Assembly (NCBI RefSeq): GCF_009834535.1
Contig: NC_045696.1
Location: 89,158,001-89,222,000, forward strand
Direction of reading: 5' to 3'
Length of the DNA stretch: 64,000 nucleotides
DNA from: Camelus ferus
Lineage: Eukaryota
The translations under genes and the position numbers were made by a program. The notes beneath the pieces were generated by a model. That model was not told the DNA's origin. It ran no database searches and was given only the letters and a program-made list of their open reading frames with translations. Positions 3,457 to 63,855 of the stretch are shown here, piece after piece (position 1 is the stretch's first letter; every line of letters starts with the position of its first letter).

Positions 3457-3580
3457 GGGGAAGGTATGGCAGTGGTAGAGTGCTTGCTTAGCATGCCCAA
3501 GGTCCTAAGTTCAACCCCCAATACCTCCATAAATAAATAAATAAATACATACATACATACATACCTAATTACCTCCCCTG
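3457..3580 (+). mobile_element. Camelid tRNA-derived SINE (Vic-1-like)
   Basis: ggggaaggtatggcagtggtagagtgcttgcttagcatg...gttcaacccccaatacctcc...cctaattacctcccc with A/B boxes, flanked by near-identical aaataactta(a/g)ttaca repeats. Confidence 0.85.
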
Positions 3581-4172: not shown

Positions 4173-4463
<291 letters not shown>

Positions 4464-10620: not shown

Positions 10621-12401
10621 AGAATAAGAAGTGCCAAATAGTATTAACACTGCCTCGAGTGGAAAAGGCTGTGTTTTAGCCTAGAAGTCACTTGACAGCT
10701 GTCATGAGTACATCCTTACCTAAAACCCATGATTGAAAATACCCTATTCCAAAGACTGAATTATGAGCGGAACATTGTTCTAAAACTGGACAAATGCCAG
10801 AGTACAAGTGAAGCATTTATTTTCAGTAGGATAACTGTCCGCTGACACCCGTGGTAACAAGTAACTAATACAGATGTCATCAGTCTACTTGATGCTCTTC
10901 TGGTGCGGCAGAGCAACAGTTTGTATCATCAATATATGGTTTTATTGTGATGGATTCGAGAAACATATGTAAGCCAATTTAAGGCTGGAAGAAGGCCAAG
11001 GCATTCATCAAGCTTTGTCTTTGTCCTTGCAAATGTTTTCTTAGATGAGTGTTTCGCCATTAAAAAAATATCAAGTTCTGGCCTGATTGAAAAATGAGAC
11101 TTTAAAATAATCTTAACGTTTGCTCTGCCTTCCGACGAGCTGTCACTTGCATCTTAGCACAGACATTCATCTTCTATGAGTAAGAGGGATTCTTTTAATT
11201 TATCTATTTTATGTATTATAGACAAGTATATGGAAAAGTTATCTTTAAAAAAGGTGGCCAAAAATATCCACAAATTACTTCACAGAAATTTAGAGAAGGG
11301 ATATTGGAATAAAAAAAGAACCGAATACTTAATTCCACCTACTTCCAGCACAGACTAAAAGAGGCATGAAGTCCTGTTAAGGTTAAATTAGCCTCAGTTA
11401 CTTAAGATAAATCCGCTCAAGCAGCAGGCAGTGCCTCAGCCTGCTTTAGTGCTGCTTATTCTGCTCAGCTCGCCTACATGGAGGCGAAAACCTAATTCAC
11501 TTTTGGCTCCGTCTCAGGAGTTTGGGTTTATTTCGTAGTAAATCAGAGTTAGTTTAACCTAGGACCCATTTTTTTTCCCATGTCTTGCCTGAGAGGACAC
11601 ACATTTCTAAGTTAGTGATCTCTAGACCTTTTTAAAACAGTAGAATGCTTTTTCCTAAACAAATTGTTTCTAGAACTCAGGGCAGAGTCTGTTCCTAATG
11701 CAAGTCTAATGATTTAGGGAAGGGGCAGGGCTGGGTTGTGGGGGGTCAGGTGGTTGGCTGGAAACATAAAAATAGTATCACTTTTCAATTATTCTTTTTC
11801 TGTGTCTCTCAGCCTTGTTTTCCCACTACTGCCTCTAATATCATTTCATCATTGTCTTATCACTATGTCTTCATATTGTTTTAAGAGTTGTTGCAAAGGA
11901 GCCACTTTGCAGAGTATGCTCTGGGGAAGCAAGTGCTTCCCTATCTTTCTTCCTAACTAGGCTTCTGGTGGAAACCTCAGTATATAAGCAGAGAAGAGCG
12001 GATCCATTTGAAACATGGCCTGATGGCCAGAACCTGACCATTTTCTTTATTGTTTGAAGAAGAGCAGTCCACCTCTTTCTGTCCCTGAGGCACCAGAGCA
12101 GAATCTTCAGGCTCCATGGGACTGTTGCAATGTGCCTTTTATAAATAGCTAGGTTTGGGTCTGTTGTATCACAGTGAGAGTCTTTGCTTTTTATTGTGAT
12201 AATTGTTCTTTTAGGTCTAATAGTCTTAATGCTATTTAATTTTTGGGGAACATTATTTCCTCTTAACTTTTCTTTCCTGCCCTCTTTTTCTCCAATGTTT
12301 TGGAAGTCGTACATTCTATTTTTGTTTACTCTTGGTTACTTTGTATTAAACAAAAATGCCATATACTATATAAGCATGTTTCTTCTTTTCTTCTACTGCA
12401 G

Positions 12402-12512
12402 CTCCAAATAGACTGGGAGAAAATCAAAGCTAAAATTGAGATGGAAATTACTAAAGAACGAGAGCGATCATCAAGCAGCCAGCCCAGCAAGAATTTTGGT
12501 CTAAAGTACTAA
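12402..12512 (+). CDS. IFT80: IFT80 last coding exon
   Basis: Acceptor ttcttttcttctactgcag. Phase 0 matches the previous exon. [36 protein letters not shown] is the IFT80 C-terminus. Confidence 0.96.
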
Positions 12513-14059: not shown

Positions 14060-14844
14060 TGTCAGCATTCTAGCAACAATTCTGTAATAACCAACTAGGT
14101 GTCGTACAATTCAATTCTGACACCACCCAGAGTTAGTGTAGGTCCCACTAGTTAAAGGACAAGATCCTCAATTAGACTGCCCTTATTTCAGTAGCCAGTC
14201 ACTAGTGGGGACCCCGGGATATCCACACCTGTCTGGCTTGGCTGCAAATTTGAGGGTTCCTCCCATTCCCCTTTAGGTTTGATAATTCACTAGAATGACT
14301 CACCAAACTCACTGAAACGTTTTCTATTACAATCTTATTATAAAAGATACAGCTCAGAAACAGCCAAATGGCAGAACTGCATAGAGCACAGTCTAGGAGA
14401 AAGGAGAGGCCTGGGGGAGTGGCAAACAGAAGCTTCCAGACCCATCACCCTCCTAGCACACCCATGTGCTCACCAGCTAGAAGCTCCCCATGGCCTTGCT
14501 GTCCTGAATTTTGTACTAGGGCTTTGTTACAGAGGCACAGTTGATTAAATCATCGGCTGTGTCACTGAACTCAATCTCCAGCTTTCTTCCTCTCCCTGGA
14601 GGTCAGGTGGTAGATTTTAACCCTCTAATCATGTGGCTTTTCTGGTGACTAGCCTTCATCTTGAAGCTCTCTAGGCCCCCTCTTTCATACACACACACAC
14701 ACACACATGCACACGCACAAACATACGTGCAAGCGCACTGGTCATTAACATATCAAAGATACTCCTTTTACTCAGGAAATTCCAGGGGTTTAGGAACCCC
14801 TGTACCAGCCCCTCTCCCCAAGACCAGATACATTCTTTATTACA
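14060..14844 (-). mobile_element. MER21-like ERVL LTR (3' LTR of the provirus)
   Basis: Minus strand starts TGTAATAAAGAATGTATCTGGTCTT...CCTAAACCCCTGGAATTTCCTGAGT, typical of MER21, and ends ...GACA. A purine-rich PPT-like tract abuts it at 14845-14862. Confidence 0.75.
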
Positions 14845-17800
14845 TCCTAGGCCACTCCCTGGTCTTTGATTACGGGATCAAAAGGAACATACCTAACTGA
14901 GCGTAACAGATACAGCGACATTTGGAGGAGTCAATGTGGGGTAAGGATAGGAAGCCGTTGAGCTCAATTTCCCAATACACCTGATTGTCAGTATCGGCAT
15001 TTTCTTTCCAATTATGCCAGTATTATAGCACAGCACGTTATGGTAGCTGTAACCTGAGAAATAAGAGTCAAAGATACTGACACATTGCCTGGGGTCCCAT
15101 CCAGTCTCTGATAACCAACCCAGTCCATCATCATACCTTATGACCGTCTTGTCCGATTCAAAAGCAGGAGTGGTCTCAGCAATGTATAACTTCACTCTTT
15201 CAGGCATTTGGTACAATTGAGCTAAGGGACAATATCATTTCTTGCTCCGAGCTTCCTTCCAAGCATTAATATTGGAACTCTCTCATTGTATAACTCAATT
15301 ATTTGTTCATTTACCGTTCACTGCTATTTCTCCTCTCTGTTTGTTCCCAAACCCTTTCACCTGGAAGGGCCATTAGGTTCGGCCACTGGGTTGGTCTAGG
15401 TGACAGGCAGCAGTGTGAGTCCAGCAAGTGCCTCCCTCTCAGTCCACTCCCATTCTATAGGATGGGGTCACATAGGTACAGGGTTAGTGGGCTCTTCTAC
15501 CAACAGGCAATATAACTGTATTCACTGTTGGCCCCAATATTACCAGATGGAGTGAAAGCACCACCCATCCCACCAGGCCCTAAGGAATTCTGATACAAAG
15601 ATTTTAAAACCGTTTGTTTTTCAAGAATCATCCCTGCTTCCAGCAATGTATTTGCAGCCATGGTCCAGGGACCACTGCATCAAGTAGAAAAAGGAAAATA
15701 AAGGTGATATGGGAAAGAAAGAAAAAAATATAGTCACACCAGCATCCTCACCTCCCCCAAGTCCCCACATTCAGAACAGCAGAGGAATTTATGGAGTGAG
15801 AACACTCCCTGAGCCCCGCTCATGTTAAGGGTGAGCACACACTTGTGGAGGCAGGTAAGCCAGCCCTTCCTACCTAGATCGCCGCCCTCCATTTTAGACA
15901 GCCCAGGTTTTGATTCCCTTTCTAATTCTTTACCAAACTGTTACTCTGAGGAAGAGATCTCTCTGCCCATGTTGGACATGATGGCCTATATTTATAAATA
16001 GTGTTCCTTGGTCTGAAGAAATGGGATGCAAATCGGTGGTCCAAATCAGTGCAGTATCTTCTGGCCCGGTTCTTTTGCAGTACTCTGAGCTCTGCATCTA
16101 CCACTCGGTAGGCAAAGCCCAGTCCAGAGTCAGTGTCTGTTCCTGTGAGGCCCACTACTAACTTCCTGGGCTGCCGGCATCAGCCTGACTTGCCAGCTTT
16201 ATGCAAGGATCTCCCCTCAGGGACTCTACCCAGAGACATCAGCAGTCTCTGTGTCTCTTGTTGGCCGGCAGAACAATTCTTGTTGGTGTTTTGTGTCTCA
16301 GAGGATACAAGAGAAATAAGTCCAGATTCAGCCCATTTCTGGAGTGCTTCAGCCCCGCAGTGTGCACTTGTTTCACAGACCCAGATGGCTGCCTTCAGTG
16401 AGCACACTAGGGTATCTGCTTGTCGATTCTAATTGCCTTCTGATGCAGGAAGGGGCTTCTTCTGGAGGCCTACTTGAATGCACCCCTCAAATTCCCAGAG
16501 TGATTTCCATAGGGCCATGCATCATAAGGGCATCTTCCATTGCCCTCTGCCTGACCACATGGCCAGATCATTGGCCACTGCCTATGAGTAGGTAAAAGTC
16601 CAGAGGGGTAAGCAGCCTGCAGTGTAGCTCACCAAGCTGACTTGTTTTCACCTTTTTCCATCAGAGTGGTGACCTTCCAAACAGAATGTTGCCTGTTCAT
16701 GTTGAAACTGCCATCCATAAACCAAACAGCTATTTATCGGTCAGTTGAGAGCTGTTTTTTGGGCACCGTCCAAGTGATGCTAGAATCCAGCAGCTCCTCA
16801 CCTGATTCCAAAGTCAGTCCTGGGGGAAAAGAGTCTGCCTACTGATGAATACACTGCATTCCCCCAGTAGCATATTCCTGTGCAAACCATGTCTATTTTA
16901 CTGCAGAATTCTAGGCACTGCCTTCCTCATTAGAGCATTTGTCTGACATCACCAGACACCATGGGTATTTTAGGTTTCAAGGTTATTACTTTTTAATTTT
17001 TTAATTGAAGTATAGTTGATTTACAATGTTGTATTAGTTTCTGGTGTACAACATCATGATTCATAATATATATATATATATACATACATACTTTTTCATG
17101 TTCTCCTTCATTATAGGTTATTACAAGATTCAACATTATTTTATCTTTCAGTCACAGGGGCATTTCCAGTTAACATCTCGTAGCAAGCTAGTAATTGCCC
17201 CTCAAATGGAAATTCTCTAGTCCAAAATTCCATTAGTCATCCTTGGAGGTGCTTACAGGCTTTTGCCGTAAGCTATAGTCTACACTCCACACACAGAGGA
17301 TTTGTCCATACAAGCACCCCACCTTCTATTCTGCAATGTGTGGGCTTGGGCAGTCTTACTCATTCCCTCTTAATCATGTCTGGTGAATGTGACTTGAAGG
17401 AAGGATTATGTGCCTTCTGTTTCACAATTCTAGGTAGGGGAAATATTCCCCAGCCGGAGACAATATCCATCCATACATTCAGGTAAAAAAGTCATAACCA
17501 CTTCACATAAACTTTGTTCAAATATACCAGTTTTTGTCCATCCCCTTAATCCCATCCACTACTGAGTTTCTATATCTTCTCAATCTATCTGTGTCTCCCA
17601 TTAGAGCTTTACCAACAGATTTTGGTACCACAATGCGTAGGGCTACCAGGTCAGAGTGTCCCGGAAACTTCCCCACCTTCTAACCATTTTACTCACTGTT
17701 GTGCATTAAGCTTTTGGTCCCCAGTGGAGGGTTGAGCCAAGGGACTGAGACCCTTTTATCAATCTTTATCGTGATTAATCTCCCTATTACTTCAGGTATT

Positions 17801-18850
17801 TTCTGGATGAGTTCCTTATTGTAATCTTTGCCTTCCAGTTTTAAAAATTCTTCCAAATTGGGACAGATAAAGCAGAATTTGAGGGGGACCTTTAATGCTG
17901 GAGGTCCTCCCAAATTTCAAGAGTGCTGTATTAAGACTTTTGTTTCAATTCCATCAATGTCCACTTTATTCATCCCATTTCTTAACAACCATCAGAAGGT
18001 TTCCACCCCACTGGAGTGAGTCCCTTGATTCTCCCACCTGTCTCTCCCACTTTCTTGTTACTGTAATGTTTTTGGTATTTGTAAGACCCAGATGAGGAAG
18101 CTGAAGGAGCAAATCAGACAAGGCTTCTCAGACTGCTGTTCAGTTTTGCAGCAGTAAGATTACATGGGGTGCGCATGGAAAATGGGTGCCCTTAGACATT
18201 GCATTTGCCGTGACGTGGGTAACAGGCATATTCAGTGGATGAAGAGCCCTGTCGTCATAAAGCCAGTTCCACAGTTTGTATATAAAGCCCATCAGCCACT
18301 CTACCTGGGGTGCTCCAATCGGCATCTGTATAGGAAGCTGAAGTCCTCCTCCTCAGTGTAAACACACTTTATAGGAACTTTTATTTAGATCACTAGGCTG
18401 GCTGTTCCCCTGGGAATAACCTGCTGTGAGTCAGAATCATGTATCGCCATCTCTGACTGTTCCATACTGAGTCACGGGTCCTGTATCCCCCCAAATGTGC
18501 TCTCTCACTCTGCAGTGTTCAAAACCAAAGATACTGCCCCTAAATTGGCCACTCTCACAATCCATGTTAGTAAGGCTTCTACAGGGAGCTGATGACAAGT
18601 ATCCACAAAATGAGGACTCCTACACAGTATACCTTCCGATTTCAATGGGCTTACCCCGCCTCCCCACCCCAAAGGTGACCAAAGGTCTTGCAGGTGCTTT
18701 CTATTGTCCCAGCATAATTGTCCCCTTTGGGGGCAGGTCTGAGGCTAGCGGCAGCCCTGAGCTCAGTTCTGGATGAAGATCCAGCCCAGCAGTCTCTTCG
18801 ACTCATTTTAGCAGGTACAGATCACAATAGCCAAGGGATTATATGTTTAG
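14845..18850 (-). mobile_element. Decayed ERVL-class internal region (gag, RNase H and integrase remnants); 5' LTR absent
   Basis: RNase H-like AVWFMDGS (~16705-16730) and S*AVANDLAMWSG (~16550-16590). Integrase Zn-finger-like WVCETSAHCG...CSAGQQ (16180-16407). Integrase core LTGTDTDSGLGFAY (~16110-16150). Gag-like text at 18140-18850. Confidence 0.85.
16990..17130 (-). mobile_element. Short L1 3' end nested in the ERV
   Basis: ttaattgaagtatagttgatttacaatgttgtattagtttctggtgtacaac, nearly the same as the L1 end at 4645. Confidence 0.85.
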
Positions 18851-25095: not shown

Positions 25096-25244
25096 AAAAA
25101 TTTATTTATTTATTTATTTTAATTTTTAGGGGGAGGTAATCAGGGTTTACTTATTTATTTATTTTTAGAGGAGGTACTGGGGATTGAACCCAGGAACTTG
25201 TGTATGCTAAACATGTGCTCTACCACGCAAGCTATATCCTCCCC
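25096..25244 (-). mobile_element. Camelid tRNA-derived SINE (Vic-1-like)
   Basis: Reverse complement of the same consensus, with a TSD-like ttctc(t/c)tgtattttta on both sides. Confidence 0.85.
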
Positions 25245-25419: not shown

Positions 25420-25680
25420 TGCTGAGAAGTTTAACGGTTGAGAGTCCCAGCTCTGGAGTCAGACGGGCTGGATCTGCCCCCTGGATCATCCACGTATCAA
25501 TCACGTGACTTGGGACACACCACTTGACCTCTCTGGGCTACACTTTCCTCTTCTGTAAAATGGGACTAATAATCCTTAGCTCCTCCTGTTATGAATTTTA
25601 AATGTGATAATACATGTAAAATGCCTAGCACAGTGCTTGGCGTAAGCATTCAGTGAATTACAGTTATTACTGTGATAATC
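25420..25680 (+). mobile_element. MIR
   Basis: ctctggagtcagac...tttcctcttctgtaaaatggg...cctagcacagtgcttggc. Confidence 0.8.
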
Positions 25681-25953
25681 ATCAGATAGCAAATGAAAAG
25701 TGTCACCCTCCCCCCTAGGCAACTGCTGAGATTCTATCAAAAGTGGTGCACATGCTTCTATTTTATTCTTTGCAAAACAGGCTAAAATGTAAATTGTTAC
25801 CAAACTTTAAATCAGAGCATGCTAGAAATAATGATATTTAACTTATCAAAGTGAACTACCAGAATGCAAACATAGTACTATAAACTTCAGGACTTAACTT
25901 AAGAAATGATTAATTATAGACAGATTACAGATGTTTATTAAAATAAAATTAAG

Positions 25954-28900
25954 CATCCACAAAAAGCTTAGGCACACTCCAGAGTAGGATCCAGAACCTA
26001 TGGAAACTCTAACAGTCCTCAGGAAACACTGGAAACCCCGGAAGAAAAGGCAGAGCCTGTGGAAGATTTGGCAGGTGTCAGAGAGCTCCTGCAAACACCA
26101 AAAGAAATAGGAAAAAATAAATGGAGATAATGTCAACTGAAAACTTAGGAGCACACCAAAGCACAAACCAGACCCAGCAAACACCCTAAGAATCCTCACG
26201 GGAGTGCTGAGGACACCCAAATGTAACCAGAACTAATGAAAATCCTGGCTGCTCTCACAGAGATTCTGTAAACACCAGAAGAACCAGAGGAAACAACACA
26301 TGATGATAATGTTCACAGAAAGCTTAGGAACATTTGAAAGCAGAATCCAGAACCAGCAGAAAATCTAATAGGCATCGGGAGGCTGCTGAGAACACCTAAA
26401 GTAAAACCAGAACCCTGGAAGACCTGGCAGATACCCGAGAGTTCCTGCAAACACCAAAAGGACCGGAGGAATAAATAAATGGTGATGATATTCACAAAAC
26501 GCATAGGAACACTCCGAGCGCAAAGGAGAACCAGAAGAAAATCTAAGAATACTCAGGAGACTGCTGGGAACAGCAGAGGGAAACGCAGACTCCATGGAAG
26601 AATATCTGACAGGCATCAAAGAGCTTACACAAACACCAAAGGGGCAAAACAAGCAGAGAGTGGAAGCAACAAGGACTCCCTGTCCCCCCAGTGGAAATGT
26701 AGAAAAGGTGAAAGCCTCATAGGTTTAAAAGAAAGATAGTTTAGGATGCGTAAAGATCGGGCAGGACCAGTGGGAGACCCAACAGGAACCAAGGGCCCTA
26801 GTGAAAACTCCACAGCAAATTGTGGACCAGAACACAAGACAGTAAGAAACTCAGGACAGTTCCCAGGGAGAAATGTGCATCAGCTGAACTCCTGACAACA
26901 ATCAAGAGACTTCTGAGGACTTCGGTAGAAAAGACTGAGTCCACGGAAAACCCAACAGGCACCAACAGACAGAACTAAAGAAAAGGGAAATCAAAGTAGA
27001 AGACTTGGTTTCCTACAATTTGCAGAACTGTAATACAATGCAACTCTTCTCACTGACCTCAGGACAACTGCAGAGCAGATCTGTGAATCGACAGAAAACC
27101 CTGGAGGCATGAAGAAACTTGGGAAAATGTCTAAGGTACATCCAGCAGAAGATCTGGCAGACATTACGATAGTGAAGGCAGCTCTGAATTCTAAAAACTT
27201 GTTCACAGGAAACCCTTAGTAAGGATTCAGATATATCAGAGAAATTACAAGAAAACTAACCTAAAAGAAATACTACTCAAAAAAACCAAGTCATAGAAAA
27301 AAATGTTAGAACATATACAGAGTGTACATTTTTTTTTTATCAAAAGACAATGAAGAAGACCATACAAAACTTTTTTTAAAACATCAAGAGAAAGCCTGGA
27401 GCCAGAAGTTACCAGTACTATATTGTACATTAGGAACCAAGATGTACTATATTGAAACCATCAAGAAAAAAGAAAAATGCAGTTGAAGACTTCTTGGAAT
27501 GCAGACTCTTCTGGGAGAATCCAAGCAGAAGACATGATGTTTGGAAGCTGTCAACAGTGGATTTGAAGAAATGTTTGATTCAGTGATGGACCCAGAGATC
27601 TCAGTCAAGAGAACTCCTCTTGTAAGCCTTGTGGATATGAATCCAAAATAAATGCCTCTGAAATTGAAGACATGTGGCCAAAGAGCACGCAAGCTAGAGT
27701 TAGTCAAAGAACAAGATCTAACCTAAAAAAGATTTTTAAATATCTGAACATTTGCCTACTCAAAAAGGCAATGTGCGAAGAGAGATATGTGTAAAGAAAT
27801 ATGAGTTTAATTTTAAAGAAAAGCTGAGTCAGGGAATAACCCTACATCCCAGATGCAGATATAGTACTGCTACAGAACTTGAGTCTCAGTTGCTTACATC
27901 AACAGAAAAGATTCAAATAAAGGTGAAAAGAATCCTGTGAAGAGCTTCCAAGAGAAATACTCAGAAGACGGAGCTATGAAGCAGAAGACAGACTGTAACA
28001 CTGAGGGGAGAAGTAAAGCTGGTATAAAGCTACAGGAATCTGATAGCTTGGTTAGTTCATCAGGGGTTATGCTCATGTAGAAAGGTGACAAACAGTGAAA
28101 AATCTGCAAGAGGAAAGTTAAATCTACAAACGACGAGAAGATACTTTTAGGACCCAGGAAGATAATGAAAATTAATTTTGACCTGGTAAAATCTTTGGTC
28201 AATACAGAAGAGAAAATTCATACAAACTAAAACAAAACAGAAGCAAATCTGGAAGATGCTAATCTTTTGTTTAATGAAATAAATGTTGCCAACAAAGAGG
28301 CAGAAGATCAAACTGTTGACAGTTCCTCAGGTAAAATCTTGAATAATGCAGGGCGGATTCTTCAACATCAACTCAAAGCAGAATAAAAGAAAAGTTAGAG
28401 GTATCTGTTCAACCCAGTAGTCAGAGATGCTACATACAGAGGAAGTTGAAGAAGAGCCCATGTAGAAAATCCGTAAGAATGTGAAAAAAAAAAAAAATAC
28501 AGCAATCAATGGTGAATCAATTTATCTTTTAGGCCTGGAGGCTCAATACGGTCTTCCCTACAAAGACAGAAGGATGTGATCTTTAATCTAGTACAACAAA
28601 TAGAATGTCTGTGAAAAAGAATGAGAAAAGATATGACCGACACACAGGAAACCACAAAGGTGCCTGTGGAAAAGTCTAGATGCACAAAGACATAGCAGTC
28701 AATGGAGAAATAATGTGCTTCAGGTTTGGAAGCCCAAATAAGGTCAGTGCCACTACTAAGATGCAAGGGCCTAATTCTTTGCTCTTATAAACAGAGCAGA
28801 GAACACATCTTTAGGCAAAAATAGGGAGAAAAATGCTGCCGATCTGTCCAGAGAAAATCTAGGTGAGGAAGCAGTAGTCAAAGAGGTAAGTCAAGATTTA

Positions 28901-29421
28901 TTGTGTTTGAAATCTAGAAAAATTAAAGTATTTGCTAGAGAGATGCAAAGATTTGATCTTTGCCCAGTGTGACAGAGGAAATTCTATAGAGAAGAGCGAA
29001 GAGAAATATGTTTACAGTCATTTAGTGCATATAAAAAGGAGAAACCACCTGTTTCAAAACTGGAAACCCATAGAAGCCAGGTGCAAATAGAATAAAAAGG
29101 AAACACTTTGGAAAATACTGTTTTACCAAAAATTTTGTGCAAAAAGCTAAGGCATAACCGGAGTAATACTAAATCACAGCAAAGAGTAACCTGGAGTTCT
29201 AAGAGATGTGTTTTGGAGAAAACATCTGCTAAAAATCCAAAGCAGGAAAAGAACAATACACAAAGAAAGAAAGAACTAGATGATAGCAAGACAATGAAGG
29301 AGCTTAGCTAGGAGTGGGGAAGAGTGACCATCTCTAGTGTGATGGCTAGCCTAAATATCTTCCATAGAATAACTTTTGCCATAAAATTAAAAGTGAATTC
29401 TGTAAGTAAAAGAAAATAAAT
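25954..29421 (+). pseudogene. MKI67: Processed, 5'-truncated MKI67 (Ki-67) retropseudogene with many stops and frameshifts
   Basis: Ki-67 motif ETPEEKAEPVEDLAGVRELLQTPKE at 26032-26106 and repeats of it. LR-tail-like CLKSRKIK at ~28904. C-terminal KSQQRVTWSSKRC...AKNPK at 29171-29240. A-rich tail at 29408-29421. TSD AAATAAAATTA(A/G)G at 25941-25953 and 29422-29434. Confidence 0.85.
25955..26660 (+). repeat. Four ~179-bp coding-type tandem repeats, each made of three 60-bp subunits, inside the MKI67 retrocopy
   Basis: Units begin at ~25955, 26132, 26311 and 26490 and share anchors such as AAGCTTAGG, CTGCTGAG and CTGCAAACACCAAAAG. Confidence 0.9.
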
Positions 29422-30945
29422 AAATAAAATTAGGTTCTATATGTATTTAAGTATAATCAAAGTGTTGGTTTTATTTGACATTTGATTATTTTACAGGCAA
29501 AATTTGAAAAAAAGAATTAAGACATCCTTTCCATCCTTATGGAAGAAAGGATGTCTTAATTTCTTGCAATTAGCTGGTTGATTTATTCTTTGGTTGAGAA
29601 AATACCTTCCCTTAGCCTATCACTTATTAGCCTTTTCATCAATGGATGAAAGGTGAACCAAAAAGCAATTCTAAACCAGTGAGGTCAGATGTAAACTTGC
29701 CAAATATTCTAATATTGATTGGTTGTCTGCAGCTTATACTTTTGGAGAGATGGTTAATGCTGGATTGTTCAAAATAAAGCAACTCATCATTTTTTCTCTC
29801 AATCTGGAAACCCAAATTAATTATGATTCTTGAAATTTTTACAAAAGTCAGTGCAGAATATTGTACAAATCTGAACACTATATTCATGTTTATAGCATAT
29901 CAATTTCAGCTCTGAATTGTTTCCCTTATTAATTCCACTTGAGAGAAACTATATACATAAAGTACAACATTAAGATACTTACCATATTGCCTTTTAAACA
30001 TGTTGAGGCCATTTCCTTATATTCCCTTTGGCCTTTACAGCTGAATCTGGTTTTCCTTATATAATACATGCCCTTTGGCATACTTGCCAATGCCATTTTC
30101 TATGGTTGAAGCACACTCACATTTGCAAAATGTGCCAATTAATGGCCTCTTAAAACTTAAAACTATCATTATAACCCAAGAAGACATTTTCCTCTTGGTT
30201 AGGATATTGAACAGCCAATACAAATTGCTTTTAAGCAACTGGTAATTATACACACACGTGATTTAGAAAATCAGTTACATTTTTCTCTCATTCCAGATGG
30301 ATTCTTACCATATCCAGGACCATCATTTCCCTACTCAATGAGAAGTCAATGAAAATGACAATGTTTGAAATATTTTAGTATGTGAGTTAGTTTAATAACT
30401 AAAAACCAGGAGGAAAAGTTAGTACTGGAGAACTTGGCACTCCCAGGTGGCTTTGGTTAAGATATGTATGTACGTAGCAGTCTTGCAAATAATATCAGGC
30501 ACAGACTATGCACCTATATAAGTCTATATCTATGTAGATACATCTCTGTTCTACACTATGTATAGAAGAATATTAAAAATGAGTAAAATGAGCAGCACAT
30601 CATGAATTACTTTCAAGTGAAAGTTTCTACATTTCTATTTTCCACTAGTTCTGTCTATGTAATAAATAACTTCCAGATAAAATCTACAAAAACTGATCAC
30701 CCAGATAATGCCCTTAGAGCTTTAAAAATGTTTCTATCCAGTTCTTCTATCATTGTGAACACATGGGTTCTGTATTAACATGGTATATTAAATACGTATG
30801 TGTATTACCATGAGATATGTTCATTTATCACTAATAAAAATAGCTGTTAAGGACTTTTCCCTCACAACATTATGCCTGAACAGAACTGTGCTTGGTAAAT
30901 CAATGAATTACAAGAAAAAAACCAAAGCAGAGTCACACTCATGTT

Positions 30946-32477
30946 TTTATTGAACTGGGTGACATCAATAAAAGCTTGTGTGATGTGCAGGGAAAAAAAG
31001 TGTAAAACTTGTAATTTTAAAATTAAGTAGAATCTCATTGCACTATTGGTGTCACATTATAGACATTCTGAATTTTATGGAGAGAAATGTTCCACAGATG
31101 GTACAAGAAAAACATCTTGATTCATTTTATAAGTGTATTTTCATAAGACTTTGTTGTAAAGTTCAAGATGCTAGTAGTAACAACATAGAAGACAGACTTT
31201 ATATATTGGTACTTGGATATTTATGTTGATGTTTCAGATATGCGTGAATTTTTTTAAGTGTCTAAAATAGTGTACCCTCAAAGGATAAATCATTTAAAGG
31301 AGTATGAAAACTTCCCAGTTTGTTTGAATGGTGAGTGGTATTGACAGCCACATGTAACTAAAATTTACAGTGTTTGAGTAACATTAATATATACAGTCAT
31401 TCAATATAATGTGATTTCATTAAATCCTATACCATTCTCAATAAAAGTTGATGCAGTCTCAACTCCTGATGTTTTTGCCAATTCACAGCTTTAAATTTCT
31501 TTTAAATGTCAGACACACATTTCATATTTTAATACACTACCATATAGTCACACGTCTGATACAGTTTGCACAGAGAAAGATTTTAATGCTTTTCTATGTT
31601 TTAATGCACTTCAAATGATTCTCTTTAATGACAGGGTCATTCTCTTTTAAAAGTTTAGAGTAAACCATTTTCTTCTATTGCAATTCAGACATCTTCAGAT
31701 TCCTTAGAACTGTCAGACTTTTTCAATCAGCTTTAAAAATTTTAATCAAATCATTTTCTTCTAATATCATTCAGATATTTTAAGATTTCTCAGAATTGTC
31801 AGATTTTTTCAATCATAAAAATAACTTTTCTAGATCCAGGTGTGAGATCCACATGTGTAATTTTTCTCAATGTAGTACCCATCCTTCCCCAAGCAGAGAA
31901 AACTTTTTTTTCCTTCTTTTCCTTTCTTGATAATCACAAACTGTAATAATTATACACAGTGTGTATATTGTACATAGACAATATGCATATGTACATTATA
32001 CATAATGCATTTTAATATATTATTTCATATTACCATTTGCTTAAAGGACATTTAATAGAATGGTAGAACTGATACAATGACACTTTTTTTTCTTAAGATA
32101 GGTTGACTGAATCCTTCTGTAGTACATTACTGCACAATTATGCTTTAAACAAAAGTTACAAGTCACAACAAATTCTTACGTTTTCTATCATGTGAAATGT
32201 ATTCCAAATGAAAAATGGAGGGGAAAGGCATGACATCATGCTTCATGGTATGGCTTACATGTAGCAATCATTTTTACATGAAACTATGACCTAGACTACA
32301 TCCATAATGTATAGTTAATATAAAAAGTTATATATTATGCCACAGTACTAAAAATAAAGTATATTCTTCTCAAATAGTGAAAATAAGGTATCCTTCATGT
32401 TTTCAATGTCACATTTTTTCTCATTTGACCATGCCTCTTTTTCCCGCCGTAAATGAAATAATGTCCAACATTTTATT
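30946..32477 (-). terminator. Candidate alternative C3orf80 polyA signals
   Basis: Minus-strand AATAAA at 32472-32477, ATTAAA at 31582-31587 and AATAAA at 30946-30951. The last is followed by a U-rich element. All lie within an AU-rich, repeat-free 3' region. Confidence 0.5.
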
Positions 32478-32849: not shown

Positions 32850-34560
<1,711 letters not shown>

Positions 34561-37500
34561 TCAGTTTTAAGTGATTGGATTTCCCCGGGAATGTTATTTA
34601 AATTGACTTGCGACTGGGATTCGCTTACCATCCTTCTTGTGATCTTTCTGATTAAAAATGGATGATGGTCATTAATGGCTAGCACAGCCCCGCAGCCGCC
34701 CTAGAGCTTGCTGGGTGGGGTGGGGGAGAGATGCCGGATGGTACAGATCCAGGGGGCTGGGAATCCGGTACCCCTCAGGAGACCTCCAGAACAGAGAATT
34801 CTCCGGAGAGGCTAAGGTCATGGCACCACGGAAGTATTCACAGAGGGGCAGGGGGGTACTCTTCCACGGTAACCCGAGTTGACGAAGGAGAGGAGAAGGG
34901 GTGCATATTTCCCCAGGGCATCCGACAAGCCCCAGTGTACCCAAGGGACAGAGCAGGGATTTGGATTTGAGGTAGGAGGCCTGTCCTCCAGCGTAAATAA
35001 CACATCTGTGAAATGGCAAACGAGAGTTGTAAGTGATTGGCAACGTTCCTAAGCATTGATCTGCGTCTAAAGGGTCTTTTTCAAGGTTATTCTTGTTTGC
35101 CAAGTTTGCCTTCAAGGGAGCCTATGCTCTCATTTAGCACATGGGGTAGAGCAGGCAGCACTCCCTGGGGAAGCCCCTTAGCGCACGCTGGGAGGGATGG
35201 CAGTTACCGCGGTCCCTGACACAGACATGTCTGCTGGGCGGTGGCCTTCAGCGGCTCATTAGAGCGACACCATGAAGGAGCCAGGAGCTTGTGCTTTTAT
35301 TCAGGCAGACTGGAACAATCATCTTTTAATCCCCTCACCCCTTAAACACTAGGTCCCCTGTAGAGAATCCAGACGGGGAAATTCCATAGTCATTGAGAGA
35401 AAAAAGTAAAAGCAAGGGGAAAACAGAACACAAAACTCAACTGTAGATCAGGTAAAAGCAAAGATTTCTCTCGGAGTAAGTCACACTGTATCTCCCTAAT
35501 AGCCTTATGGAACAAGGCTGGAGTGTGGGTTTGATTTAGACTGGTCAGTGTTCCTCCTAAATGAAAACATTTTAAAATATCTACTGCTGGGAACACCTTA
35601 CTTTGCCTTGCACTCCAAAACAATCCTTTCTCCTCCTGGAGAAGCTCCTAAGTGTCACTAACACCAAGTACTTCATGCGAAGCTTGGCTGAGCACACGTC
35701 CTTCTTTCTAAGCTCTCCTAAAGCCGAAATATTTCTCTGTACCGCCATCTGTTTCTCTGCTGGGAGGCCTAAAACCTATTCAGTAAAGACTAATTGACAA
35801 GGGGTTTCAAATTGTAGAAAGAGGGTGGAAATGATTCTTTTTAGGACAATGAAAATCATTATCCTTTCATTCACCCATTCTTTGGCCAAATTTACACCGC
35901 ACGTTTTTCTATATTCTAGGAACTCTGCTAGGTGCTCGCCATTATATAGAAATAGATGATTCCTCCCCAGGGTGGAATAAACCCAGGTCTGCAGGCCTAG
36001 CTGCTTCTAAATGGAGTAAAGGAGACATTCCACAGAGGGAAACAAATGACAGTTTCCTCTCTGATGGTGACTTGTTCTCATTTTCCTAGAGGAAAAATAG
36101 TTAATGAGTTTACAGCAATCTCAAGGATGAAGGCAGTTCATAGCTTGAGATGGGCGTTAGAGTACGAAGTCGATAAAAATGTGAAGACCTCTTTGGGTTC
36201 TTATCTGATCTGCTAGGATTTCTGCTGGCCATGGGAGCAATGGCAAAAGTAAAGGGGAAGTTGTCTGGTTGATGATGCATAAGAGAAACTGTCCTGCTTA
36301 TTGTTATTTTGAAATTAGTTAACAAACAGCATTTAATCTGTTTAATTTCTGTCTGCCTTCAAGGGAATTAGAATTTGTTTGCAGGATATCAGGACACAGT
36401 AGAAAAACAATATAGATCTTACATAAAATAAAACATTGGCAGAGTTACATAAAAAACAAAGAAAAGGATGGGGTCTGCAAAATGCATATGGAATGGATTT
36501 TATTTGATTTTTTTCTTTCCAAATTGATAGTCCCAAAGCATCATCCATTAAAGACCCTCTACAGAAACTGGCGCCTCTTTGTTTCTCCTCTGATCTCTCA
36601 GTCTCACTTAATTCATTTTTATTTGCAGTGTAATTTATTGTGTACAACCTTTTGAAGGAAAGAAAAGAAACCCTATAGCTTTAAAAGCCCCAGAAAAGAC
36701 ATGATCTTCATTACTCAGCACCCTTATTCTTTGTATTTGTTTAACACACAAATAAATGGGTTAGACTTAGCTCTCAGAAAGTCATAAATTCAAGCCACTT
36801 AGGGAGGAAGATGGAATTTAATTATATGTTCCATAGAATAATTGAAAGATAAAGGAAGATCACAATGTAAAAATTAAAAAGAAACCTTATTTTGTTGAAA
36901 ATCAGCACCAAATTGTGTGTAAGTCAGTGTGTGCAAGAGAAAAAAAAAAAAAACAGATGGAAGAGGGACAAGGACTGACTTTCATCCAAAAAGCATGGTC
37001 TCTAGGAGTACAGCTTGATTAAAAAAAAAAATTAAGAACATTAACTGCTTTATCTTGCTGAAGTGCTTGGATAATATTTTTTGAAAATTTTACCTTCCTC
37101 GTTTATTTACATTCATTTGAATGAATGCCAAATTAGCCATACTTTTCAACTTTTTAGAACAGAAGAAAGTAAGCAGAACACCACAAAACTGGTTGCTGTT
37201 TCACCTGTGCTTCTGGGAGCTGTCCTGATGGCTTGAGAAAGACTGGGCGGCCCCAACGTTCAACTTTCTGTTCTGTCACATGATACCCGGTCCAGAAGGG
37301 AACGCCTCCCTGATGTCTGCTGACTGTGAGTTCTTACCTTTAAACCTGGGAAGCAATAGTTCTGCCCTTTTCACGTCCCTTCTTCAAAACGTCTAAAAGT
37401 GGGCGGTTGGGACCTTGCAAACCATCCAGTCTCTAAGAACCCCCTTTTCGGGGTGTACCGCATTTTTCCTTACTACTAACTCGCTATTAAAGTTGATTTA

Positions 37501-37974
37501 TTAAACTCCTCATTTTATGGTTTTCGTCCATTTGCAGTATGTCCTCCCTGAGCAACAGTAAATTAAGGGTTTGATGGTAAATAGCACACATTTGCATAAG
37601 TATGCCTACCTAGAAATGATTTGTGATCTGAAATAATCTACTTTGAAGTTCTTTGCAAATTGTATTTCTTTCGCCACTCATTTAATAAATATTTAATGAG
37701 GGCCCACTCTGAACTAGGCATTCTGCTCTGATCTGAAAATGCTGTGAAATCAAAACGTTCCCTGTCCTCAGGGAGCTTGCTGGGAGAGGGGAGAGAGAAC
37801 CACAGATGCTAATCAGTCAGATTAATCAATCACTAAACTCCAGACAAAGATCAATGATTATAAAGGAGAAGTTCCCCGAGTTTTTACACTGGATGTTATC
37901 TGGACTTTGGTGGGGTGGGGGTGTCAGCCAGAAAGGCCTCCATAAGAAACAGCTTCTTAGGAAAGGACAAGGCC

Positions 37975-38403: not shown

Positions 38404-40474
38404 GAAAGGCCAAGGCCAAGAGAAAGGATGTGTTCTGGGCAGAGAAAACTTCATGGGGACCAGTTCCCGGGGCGGGAAGACCCTTCATGTGTCATCTCTC
38501 ATGCTTGGGGCAAAGCCTGGATCATTTCTGTCTTCACAGTTGGGAACCTCTTGTTCATAAGCTTTAAGTAGAGTCGAGCTATGCCTCACTGTTATTCAGT
38601 TTTAAACCAAATCTGGTTCCCTGCAGGGTCTCTAACAGGTTGTGTGAATAGAGTTACCTCCATAGACCTGCTCAGTCTTTGCTTGGAGACCAGGAGAGTT
38701 CCAGCACTGTTTCCTGTCCTCTCCACCTCCACTCGCCTGACTTAGAGCGGAGTCTGCATTTCCTTTCAACTCTGAGTTGGCAGCTGGCCGACAAAAGGCT
38801 TCTTCAAGCCAGATGCTTGAAGCAGGAGAAAAGGCAATGTGAGGTGCTTTGTGTCTTTCGTTCAAATTAGGCACAAAAGGAAATAGAAATCTTTCTCCCA
38901 TGCTTGAAGCTAGAAACAAAAGGTTGGGTACGTTCAGGCCTTGAGGAAAGAATATCTACATTTCTATTTGGCCTTTTAGCTTTTCCAAGTACGTCCGCGT
39001 GCACTGTTTTGTTTTCTCCTTATTGCATTCCTGTGAGATGGGTTGAAGTTATTATTATCCCTTTTTCCAGGTGAAGAGAGGTTGACACATTGGAATCACA
39101 GGGTAAACTGGTGGTGGTGCTGAAACTGGGATCCAAGGCTTGTGATGGGAAGCGCCTCACTGCCTCACCGACTTGGGCTGGGCCAAAGGGACCCTGGGGG
39201 CAATGCTCTTGTGTTCCCTCTGACCACTTCAGATGCACTGAGAGGCCAGTTATAAGGAAAATACAGCTGGATTCTGTTCTAGGCTCCATTCTTTACATGT
39301 GAACGGAGCTCTCCAGTGCTCATCAGTTGGCTAAAGGTCCGTGCTTGGGAAAGTAAGGATAAACTGGGTTCTGAAACACAAAATGAATATATGATATTAC
39401 TTATCGGTGACCTAACTTCTATATGTAAGTTTTCTTTATAACAAGTTTTCAGTTAATTTCTCATGGCAAACTCTCTTTTTTGAATTGCTGGAGATATAAA
39501 AATCAAACCATAAATATTATGAGATATTTGAGTGAGGCCAAGAAGATCTGAAATTAGAATTCCAGTTATATCAGCTGAATGAATTTCTTTCTCACTCCTA
39601 CTTTTTAGATGGTCAGATTGGTGAAGTTAGAATAGATCTGTCAGTAGGCTGATGTACCAGCCAAATGCTCACATGGGCAGAAAAATCACATAGCATGAAA
39701 TTACAATGAAATCACTTCATAAAGATGGAATAATTTCATAAGGTGAAACATTTTTACACTCCATTATTTTAACTTGAAACTAGTAATACACTCTTTGCCT
39801 TCCTTTCATTACAAGGGAAAATTAGTTGTTAATACCACCATCTGAATATTCTCCGTAGATTAGGGTGGAGCATGAGATGCCTGTTCTTGTTCAGAGTCCT
39901 GCCCATGTCCTTACATTTACAGGGCAGCAGGACTGGTAGCACTGACCCTGAGCTGGCCATTACCCCCACCTGGGCAGGGCTGTGGACTGTCTACCCAGCA
40001 CCCTGCTTCTAATATTAAATGGCATAGGAGAACTGTCTTCCAAGATACTTGCCTTAAAAGATTGTGAATATAGCCAAATACCCAAAATTTCCCTTGACAA
40101 TTTTCATTGTAGATTTATCCAACTATGAATTTTAAAAGAGCTTTGGGAGTATAATGTTAATTTCCTTTTCATCTTTATTCTCCACTCCTTTCCTTCCTGA
40201 ACCCTTTGCTTCAATAAATGACTGCCTGAGACAGCTGCCAAGCCCCCTGCTTTAGAGATGTTGTCCCTTCCCTTTTGCTGTACCCTCCCCCTAAGAATTA
40301 TTTTTTCCCATCTCTATAGGTCAAAACCATATAACATGCACCTCCTCTCCAATGTCACCTCTCCAAAATTTATACCACCCACCCCGAAGTCCACCCTCCC
40401 CAGCTAGAAGTCATCTCTTTCTCTCTTCTCAGAATCCCCTTAATAGCATCTCTTATATGTGGCAATTCTCATTT

Positions 40475-40614
40475 TCTTCTTCTTCTTCTTCTTTTTTTTA
40501 ATTTTCTGGGGGTAGGTAATTAGGTTTATTTATTTTAATGGAGGTACTGGGAATTGATCCATGGTCTCTTGCATGCTAAGCATGTGCTCTGCCTCTGGGC
40601 TGTACCCACCCCCA
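40475..40614 (-). mobile_element. Camelid tRNA-derived SINE (Vic-1-like)
   Basis: ggtaattaggtttattt...ggaggtactgggaattgatcc...catgctaagcatgtgctct. Confidence 0.85.
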
Positions 40615-41510
40615 CTGGCAATTTCTTGTTTTCTACCTTCATATTTCAGGTGGTTGTATACATAACTTAGTCCTGGGGTTTCTAGAAATCTATTCATGGC
40701 CGTAGGCTTTGTGTCTTCTCCGCTGTGGAGCAGCAGTTTTCCATCTCTCTGTGTCCTGGCACCATTCTGACTAGTGCTTTGGGAAGCTCACCTGAGGGGT
40801 TCCTCTGCTCACACTTTACCTTCCCCCAACTGCTACATTGTTTGAATGGAACTCCTGCCTGCTTGCCTGAGCTCTAGTAGAAATCCACGAGGCAAAGTTC
40901 TCGAATGTTCCTGTCAGCACGCCATCTTTCTATAGTCCTCATTTGCTGTTAGGTCACTCTTCTTAGCCTCTGCAGCAAGGTTTATCCAGCTGACCATGAG
41001 TCACAGGACCCACTCTGTTCATCATCCCCTGGGACAGGCATCACTATACACATGGAGGCCTCAGCTGGGACAAAATGGGCAGAGTTGGGAGCACATCTAT
41101 GAAGAGCTTACAGAACTCTAGAATGCCATGGCCACATCTTTCAGGAATCTCTGCCCTGGCAACTTGAACATCATAGGCGCTGAATACATTCTTATGGAAT
41201 TAATACACCTAAGTGTATGACTATATTTTCAACATGTATCCCTCTCAAGTAACAATACCATTGTTTAGGTACCTGCAGAATGAAATGTTTTACTTATATA
41301 TTCTTTCAAGCACAAGGAGGATTGCCCCCTGGTTACAGTGACCAGGGATTTAGAGAATAAGCCTTTATTTACCTGTGTGATTTGACTCCTGAAGCCCATT
41401 TGCTCCAGCTACTGGAGGATACAATTTTCATATTTCAACTATTAATACCTCAGCCAGCCTTGGACGCTTTTGGTTTCAGATTGGTTCTTCAACCATTACA
41501 GCTCTTCCCT

Positions 41511-47377: not shown

Positions 47378-47888
47378 ACATGGTTCTTAAAGTGTGGTTC
47401 CTGGACCAGCAGCATCAGGCTCACTTGGGAACTTGTTAGAATTGCAAATTCTCAGGCCCCTTCCCAGATCTACTGACTGAGCCTATCAACATGTGTGTGT
47501 GGGAGGGTATAGCTCAAGTGGTAGAGTGCATGCTTAGCACGCATGAGGTCCTGGATTCAATCCCCAGTACCTCCATTAAAAAAAATAACAAGTAGACCTA
47601 GTTACCTCTGCCCTGCAAATAAAAACAAACAAACAAAACCCCCTGTGTTTTATCAAGCTCTCCATGCGATTCTAATAGATTTTTGTTTTAGATTTGTTTG
47701 CAAGGGAGACGGTATAGCTCAACTGATAGAGTACATGCTTGGCATGTACGAGGTCCTGGGTTCAATCCCCAGCACCTCCATTAAGTACATAAATAAACAA
47801 ATAAACTGAATTACCTCTCCCTCAAAAAGAATCATGAATGTAGATTTGTTCTCAAATCTAAGTCTAAATCTAAGTTTGCAAACCACTG
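47378..47888. mobile_element. MER5A hAT MITE interrupted by two Vic-1-like SINEs (47500-47640 and 47704-47830, both +)
   Basis: MER5A termini catggttcttaaagtgtggt and aagtttgcaaaccactg. Two complete SINE bodies lie inside. Confidence 0.85.
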
Positions 47889-63729: not shown

Positions 63730-63855
63730 GTTTGTTTTATGAGGGGGAGGTAATTAGATTTCTTCACTGATTTCCGCTTAGAAGAGGTACTGGGGATTGA
63801 ACCCAGGACCTCCTGGGTGCTGAGCATGTTCTCCACCACTTGAGCTCCAGCCTCC
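63730..63855 (-). mobile_element. Camelid tRNA-derived SINE (Vic-1-like)
   Basis: gggggaggtaattag...gaggtactggggattgaacccaggacctc...accacttgagct. Confidence 0.85.

Follow-up and report, generated by a model that had tools for sequence, protein, structure and literature searches.

A decayed MKI67 retrocopy in the Camelus ferus genome resembles xenarthran and afrotherian Ki-67 rather than that of its host

The stretch of DNA considered here, hereafter the window, comprises 64,000 nucleotides of the Camelus ferus genome (assembly GCF_009834535.1, contig NC_045696.1, positions 89,158,001 to 89,222,000 of the forward strand; coordinates below are those of the window). Between the last exons of an IFT80-like gene and a gene of the DUF4719 family lies a block that an initial annotation, made from the letters alone, had described as an old, 5′-truncated processed retrocopy of MKI67, the gene for Ki-67, bearing the hallmarks of insertion by long interspersed element 1 (L1). 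This description is supported by homology, joined exon junctions, a target-site duplication, a poly(A) signal and a tail. The main point, which that annotation did not contain, is the presence of a xenarthran/afrotherian Ki-67 architecture within a boreoeutherian genome. The block is organised as follows.

25941-29434, + strand: whole retrocopy block, a 5′-truncated MKI67 copy including both target-site duplications.
25941-25951, + strand: 5′ copy of the target-site duplication, exact over 11 bp and 12/13 when extended to 25953, at an L1-endonuclease-type TT/AAAA site (25938-25943).
25952-26700, + strand: Ki-67 repeats, about four units of 179 bp (60 aa) each (Tandem Repeats Finder, autocorrelation, Pfam KI67R).
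26701-27832, + strand: final, degenerate repeats, up to where the repeat exon ends (KI67R E 0.0016, anchor spacing, segment scores).
Roughly 27000-27800, + strand: about 270 codons without counterpart in the boreoeutherian Ki-67 proteins examined (segment scores).
27833-29245, + strand: long C-terminal region of LR type, corresponding to the penultimate exon (intron-less join to the upstream part).
29246-29307, + strand: last coding exon (intron-less join after NPKQ), with one frameshift and the ancestral stop TAG at 29305-29307.
29308-29407, + strand: part derived from the 3′ untranslated region (UTR), with ATTAAA at 29386-29391 (sequence order).
29408-29421, + strand: decayed poly(A) tail (A-rich tract).
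29422-29432, + strand: 3′ target-site duplication, reaching 29434 with one mismatch.

As had been noted, the block is purine-skewed (0.62, with A at 0.41, against 0.45 and 0.48 in the flanks) and contains no long open reading frame (ORF), the longest stop-free stretch on the + strand being 86 aa. Its CpG observed/expected ratio is 0.21, and those of the flanks are 0.18 and 0.26. The direct repeat stands where it had been claimed, at 25941-25953 and 29422-29434; its 5′ copy is preceded by the TT of the TT/AAAA site, and the ATTAAA signal is followed, from 17 nt further on, by the A-rich tail. Identity of at least 12/13 arose in 6 of 3000 random slot pairs, and when 183 other endonuclease-like sites were compared with the real A-rich 3′ slot, 12/13 was reached by none and 11/13 by 10. 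The 13-mer is AT-rich, and the repeat motif by itself is weak because two further one-mismatch matches occur in the window (37024 and 61303). The duplication is convincing because Ki-67 homology, which was found independently of it, begins at 25952, the very next base past the exact repeat. Two of the initial claims about the 3′ end stood only in part. The ORF at 29108-29311 (TTG start) is real, but its closing residues are out of frame and the ancestral end lies in another frame. Likewise, a short 3′ UTR is supported, the poly(A) signal ending 84 nt past the stop, but its attribution to a minor isoform goes beyond the evidence, and the ancestral mRNA may normally have ended there.

Alignment with MKI67 at the protein level gave a significant, colinear match. 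The best protein match (E 1.6e-30) clusters with armadillo Ki-67 (XP_058155457.1), and a bat match has an E value of 4.7e-10. In tblastn the block is colinear with armadillo residues from about 1355 to 2541, and frameshift-aware alignment to the armadillo and sloth (XP_037660988.1) proteins runs colinear from 25952 to about 28650, at 46-47% identity over some 830 codons; a second aligned block occupies 28994-29305. The reading frame is disabled by 13 stops and 19-22 frameshifts over 25952-28658 of this alignment. The LR-type region is 52-67% identical to atlantogenatan Ki-67 at its start and 50-58% at its end, and the ancestral stop coincides with the end of the afrotherian Ki-67 proteins. The first 168 codons, used as a query, retrieved three proteins of 295-2000 aa, all of them Ki-67. 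Pfam KI67R (PF08065) matched three of the twelve stop-free fragments, with E values of 2.8e-6, 1.6e-4 and 1.6e-3, all three under the curated cut-off of 32.4 bits; the first two, within 25952-26700, fall below it because of the shortness of the pieces. As initially described, the part that carries the FHA domain and the PP1-binding site is missing: tblastn with the N-terminal 900 aa of the sloth and dromedary proteins gave no match in the window.

The claimed absence of introns was borne out at two putative exon junctions, 27832/27833 and 29245/29246, both of which are continuous in the copy. The last junction was placed where predicted proteins diverge past the NPKQ equivalent, Elephas isoform X2 departing from Loxodonta and manatee, and Cervus from other deer; the upstream one was placed immediately ahead of a G-x-S-L-R motif, where an insertion in the baiji protein and a gapped model of the sloth protein both break. 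The longest gap in the alignment that contains DNA only measures 19 codons and falls within the repeats. Another such gap, of nine codons near 27420, was considered as an intron and rejected, as it is a local duplication. According to a 2021 review, the Ki-67 repeat region is a single large exon in vertebrates (PMC8354752). Given this single repeat exon, the presence of repeats, tail and 3′ UTR in one block implies a spliced RNA. The same exon would leave much of the block intron-free had it arisen as a DNA-level segmental duplicate, or as a once-functional paralogue or retrogene that later decayed. Such an origin is nevertheless highly improbable: both putative junctions are joined, a poly(A) signal, an A-tail and a flanking duplication are present, homology starts exactly at the duplication, and the N-terminal part is absent from the window. 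Joined exons, poly(A) signal and tail, target-site duplication, TT/AAAA site, 5′ truncation and a decayed frame are all features that the copy has in common with L1-mediated processed pseudogenes (retrocopies), the general class with which it was compared. Unlike ordinary members of this class, it derives from a form of its source gene that would have gone from the host lineage.

This difference emerged from scores across mammals. Whole-block, frameshift-aware scores were 995 (armadillo), 993 (sloth), 441-460 (three afrotherians), 264-367 (three marsupials) and 174-279 (12 boreoeutherian records); three camelids scored 190-213. The likeness to human Ki-67 that had first been remarked upon therefore names the right family, but the human protein, at 174, is among the poorest matches and aligns with the repeats only. 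The segment comparison was extended to 125 boreoeutherian records, 113 of them new (from 120 of 294 FHA matches) and 12 from the earlier set, many being isoforms; among these listed matches the highest score was 66 (median 49) for 27000-27800 and 51 (median 39) for 27900-28650. Shuffled sequences reached 46-55 and 44-63, respectively, and the few boreoeutherian scores slightly above background on 27000-27800 come from short repeat matches. The copy retains in these segments about 270 and 320 codons, respectively, for which all 125 records stay close to background. For the same two segments armadillo scored 260 and 296, sloth 338 and 246, Loxodonta (XP_010597542.1) 93 and 181, and manatee (KAM9618074.1) 89 and 168. 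The comparison used the last 1100 aa of each protein, which excludes the matching part of Elephas (XP_049711486.1); that protein scored 46 with its last 1100 aa, and 216 and 180 when longer pieces were used. On these alignments, the copy resembles xenarthran and afrotherian Ki-67 and not the camelid Ki-67 of its host. Host-protein searches catch the repeats only, because the source form would no longer exist in the host lineage.

Repeat period and tail length point in the same direction. The block contains a tandem unit of 179 bp, a feature the initial annotation lacked, which Tandem Repeats Finder reports at 26060-26601 and which coincides with the autocorrelation peak of the DNA. Repeat spacing in boreoeutherian Ki-67 is 110-125 aa, or double that, in 122 of the 125 records among the matches listed. 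In human Ki-67, exon 13 holds 16 repeats, each about 120 aa long, and the LR tail is short (PMC8354752). From a fixed anchor to the upstream junction there are 310 codons in the copy, 309 in armadillo, 316 in sloth and 39 in camelids and human. Between that junction and the QRVT motif the copy has 449 codons, xenarthrans 564-569, afrotherians 614-810 and boreoeutherians 129-132 (in all eight measured; 132 in human and camelids). A six-residue deletion before NPK, present in each of the ten boreoeutherians aligned, is absent from the copy. Human and camelid Ki-67 thus share the Ki-67 motif, the junction motifs and the C-terminal motif with the copy but differ from it in the ~122-aa repeats, in both anchor distances and in this deletion. 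Xenarthran Ki-67 is colinear with the copy, at the C-terminus too, and agrees with it in anchor spacing, yet belongs to full genes with FHA and PP1 parts and lacks the afrotherian-like C-terminal residues of the copy. Afrotherian Ki-67 has, like the copy, a long tail after the junction and is the best match to its last 55 residues, stop position included, but it matches 27000-27800 only in part, and its tail contains a tandem expansion of 40 aa specific to that lineage.

Other Ki-67 records showed peculiarities of their own. The 40-aa expansion of elephant and manatee Ki-67 (P0010, P0015, P0038) is a separate one inside the C-terminal region. Fukomys Ki-67 has a dominant spacing of 56 aa and two Hipposideros records one of 81 aa, departing from the 122-aa unit (P0020, P0090, P0097). 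A higher-order unit of 240-244 aa was seen in camelid, pig, pangolin and other Ki-67, and records P0023, P0030, P0052 and P0122 carry an additional match to Pfam PF22645, possibly from fused gene models.

Retrocopies usually derive from the gene of the host lineage itself, and the repeats of the block match camel Ki-67 at 30-34%. A younger, ordinary retrocopy of a camelid or artiodactyl MKI67 that looks odd through decay is barely credible all the same: about 600 codons colinear with sloth and armadillo are beyond the reach of decay, and a sister position to camelids was rejected by the approximately unbiased (AU) test (p=1e-5). The tree behind this test was built from 111 shared columns of 14 placental proteins and the copy, with no outgroup. 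Boreoeutheria excluding the copy received 100/100 support, on a long stem of 0.56. The AU test likewise rejected the copy as a stem artiodactyl (1.5e-4) or a stem laurasiatherian (3.6e-4), and a sister position to sloth or armadillo gave p=0.024; three basal placements were not rejected and were indistinguishable from one another. The copy thus shows neither the ~122-aa repeat and short tail of boreoeutherian-type Ki-67 nor a place within that clade, and because the AU test rejects both the boreoeutherian and the armadillo/sloth placements, it would record Ki-67 as it was near the placental root. The tree bounds the age of the copy without giving it.

These results also bear on the idea that boreoeutherian MKI67 retains the seemingly lost segments as introns or rare exons and that the copy was made later, from an isoform containing them, so that the contrast would reflect a splicing change or a gap in annotation. 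Every comparison was made on predicted proteins, and at these junctions some records show an alternative end or an insertion, which leaves some room for this explanation. It is quite unlikely, since in the segments common to all placentals the copy still falls outside Boreoeutheria (100/100, nested placements rejected), and since the copy lacks the six-residue deletion and has repeats of 60 rather than 122 aa.

Further relatives of the copy came from a sensitive search with its last 178 codons among 1.84 billion representatives, which found four proteins, all short ORFs. These fragments are 54-72% identical to the copy, compared with 38-64%, over shorter stretches and at E 4e-8 or weaker, to the best of 153 long records. 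All four have Trp at a site where 110 of the 153 records have Arg (one has Gly and 42 were unmatched by the pattern). One fragment (P0035) spans the last junction, and the translation of another (P0034) extends into the 3′ UTR-derived part, at 29323-29383. Since the derived Trp is common to all four, they are probably orthologous copies in other mammals, as judged from these residues. A metagenome scan with the C-terminal alignment confirmed none of 228 pattern matches as a locus. The best matches of the block being distant mammals, foreign DNA was also considered, whether as contamination, through misassembly or by horizontal transfer with a xenarthran or afrotherian donor. Its probability is negligible: 14 sequencing runs from five studies, one of them perhaps from the source sample, contain 95-97% of the sampled words of 25500-30000, flanks included; armadillo and sloth are equally distant from the copy, which mixes xenarthran-like with afrotherian-like features; and relatives of it occur on other contigs.

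Outside placentals, the potoroo protein scored 87 against 27900-28650 (shuffle maximum 56), and the match lies 545-356 aa from the protein end, as expected. Marsupial and bird Ki-67 repeats are 20-aa-based, and chicken repeats measure about 60 aa (PMC8354752). From these three observations the long form of Ki-67 appears to be ancestral. With a probability of roughly 0.86, the block is therefore regarded as a retrocopy of an MKI67 mRNA of ancestral architecture, inserted near the placental root before the gene was remodelled on the boreoeutherian stem. According to this reading, a spliced, polyadenylated MKI67 mRNA would have been reverse-transcribed by the L1 machinery at a nick in TT/AAAA (target-primed, with L1 as the presumed agent), and reverse transcription would have halted within the repeat exon, some 3.47 kb on, leaving a duplication of 11-13 bp. 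Lacking a promoter and an ATG as well as the FHA and PP1 parts, the copy would have been dead on arrival and have decayed ever since. Its source gene would have had the ancestral placental architecture, with 60-aa repeats and a long C-terminal region, which survives in xenarthrans and partly in afrotherians; from this architecture it follows that the insertion would have taken place near the placental root, in stem Placentalia or the earliest stem Boreoeutheria. The insertion would then be about 90-100 million years old or more. While the copy only decayed, the parent gene would have been remodelled on the boreoeutherian stem, where the ~122-aa repeat was presumably fixed and the tail may have lost about 270 and 320-430 residues. 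That the insertion occurred on the boreoeutherian stem itself, or is common to only one of Afrotheria and Xenarthra, is a tentative proposal at slightly less than even odds.

Several observations weigh against this reading. Positions 28660-28990 are unalignable to sloth, and the repeat periodicity of xenarthran Ki-67 is weak. The junctions were placed from the alternative ends of predicted proteins and not from parent gene DNA. The 111 columns come from a fast-evolving disordered protein with no outgroup, so that the long branch of the copy could have been pulled basally, and the Shimodaira-Hasegawa (SH) test leaves two placements within Xenarthra standing (p=0.225). Bilby and opossum score 62-63 on 27900-28650, which is shuffle level, and blastp with the sloth C-terminal segment gave no marsupial match. 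Sampling covered two xenarthran and two afrotherian families and included no eulipotyphlan, lagomorph or treeshrew. It may further be asked whether the decayed copy was co-opted as transcribed or regulatory sequence between its two convergent neighbours. The duplication and the poly(A) signal are well preserved for the age proposed, and two RNA-seq runs of one study contain 40-41% of its words, although RNA word shares (35-66%) were not used as evidence. Co-option is very unlikely, with 13 stops and some 20 frameshifts along 2.7 kb and a CpG ratio of 0.21, like that of the flanks.

The neighbouring genes and some further features of the window complete the picture of the locus.

4265-4388 and about 12399-12509, + strand: last two coding exons of the IFT80-like gene (exon reading).
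33326-34063, - strand: intact single-exon DUF4719 gene (Pfam PF15843, E 9e-124), 3.9 kb downstream of the copy and convergent.

We take the upstream gene to be IFT80 and the downstream one to be C3orf80. A search of PDB with a 40-aa exon of the former gave no match. The latter is covered by a CpG-rich island at 33001-35000, and features of its protein in the ESM Atlas point to membrane proteins of the TMEM92/WBP-1/VOPP1 type (scores at most 0.90, a lead only); a metagenome scan with this protein yielded one locus, of 1205 bp, which ends short of the retrocopy. Downstream of the gene, a tandem duplication of about 90 bp lies at 31646-31822 (78% identity). The segment 37961-38417 consists of a short L1-like 3′ end with an A-tail, an 18-bp telomere-like unit repeated 16.8 times and a second A-tail; its minisatellite has eight CCCTAA in 303 bp, and a 13/14 direct repeat flanks the whole segment (37961-37974 and 38404-38417), an arrangement that resembles a telomere-like minisatellite carried along by L1 3′ transduction. 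On the minus strand, about 4.8 kb at ~14070-18830 is presumably an old long terminal repeat element with internal sequence. Six copies of a simple short interspersed element (SINE) derived from tRNA-Ala occur at 25105-25243, 47501-47637, 47702-47827, 40489-40615, 63742-63855 and 3458-3560, of which ARAGORN calls two and Rfam three as tRNA. The camelid microsatellite primer LCA37, given in two papers (PMC7296511, PMC8388510), aligns with the tail of the SINE at five places, with 2-4 mismatches. Simple SINEs are listed in SINEBase for camels (vic-1) and also for armadillos (DAS-I), the latter of similar build (PMC3531059), so that the SINE by itself does not settle the host; an armadillo-like xenarthran host was rejected on the match to the primer and on the equal distance of armadillo and sloth from the copy.

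As a retrocopy the element belongs to an ordinary class, and the architectural contrast is readable from living xenarthrans alone. The copy adds evidence, from a genome inside Boreoeutheria, that the long form of Ki-67 was once present in this lineage, and it is useful for showing which form is old. MKI67P1, which we take to be X-linked, would then be a different locus from the camel copy. By its name it is a human MKI67 pseudogene (PMC7277826). The literature consulted, in which few subscription journals were covered, holds no account of this copy or of a boreoeutherian remodelling of Ki-67, including the accessible parts of PMC8354752, PMC10562473 and PMC7277826. For the 2021 review, the combination of a conserved layout with divergent repeats is an enigma still without an answer, and mammalian repeats are taken to be of similar size (PMC8354752). 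If the long form is ancestral, human-type Ki-67 would be a boreoeutherian derivative, and the 60-aa unit of the copy points to the 122-aa repeat being a fixed dimer of such a unit. Xenarthrans, afrotherians and the copy have a tail several hundred residues longer than that of the human type. The copy also illustrates how old pseudogenes escape detection when the protein of the host is the sole query. Should the insertion indeed fall on the boreoeutherian stem, or be common to only one of Afrotheria and Xenarthra, boreoeutherian genomes, perhaps including the human one beside C3orf80, would hold a direct record that textbook Ki-67, with its 122-aa repeats and short chromatin-binding tail, took shape in the short time from the placental root to the boreoeutherian crown. 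The copy would also serve as a 3.5-kb presence/absence marker for that span, and orthologous copies could yield the ancestral tail independently of living xenarthrans.

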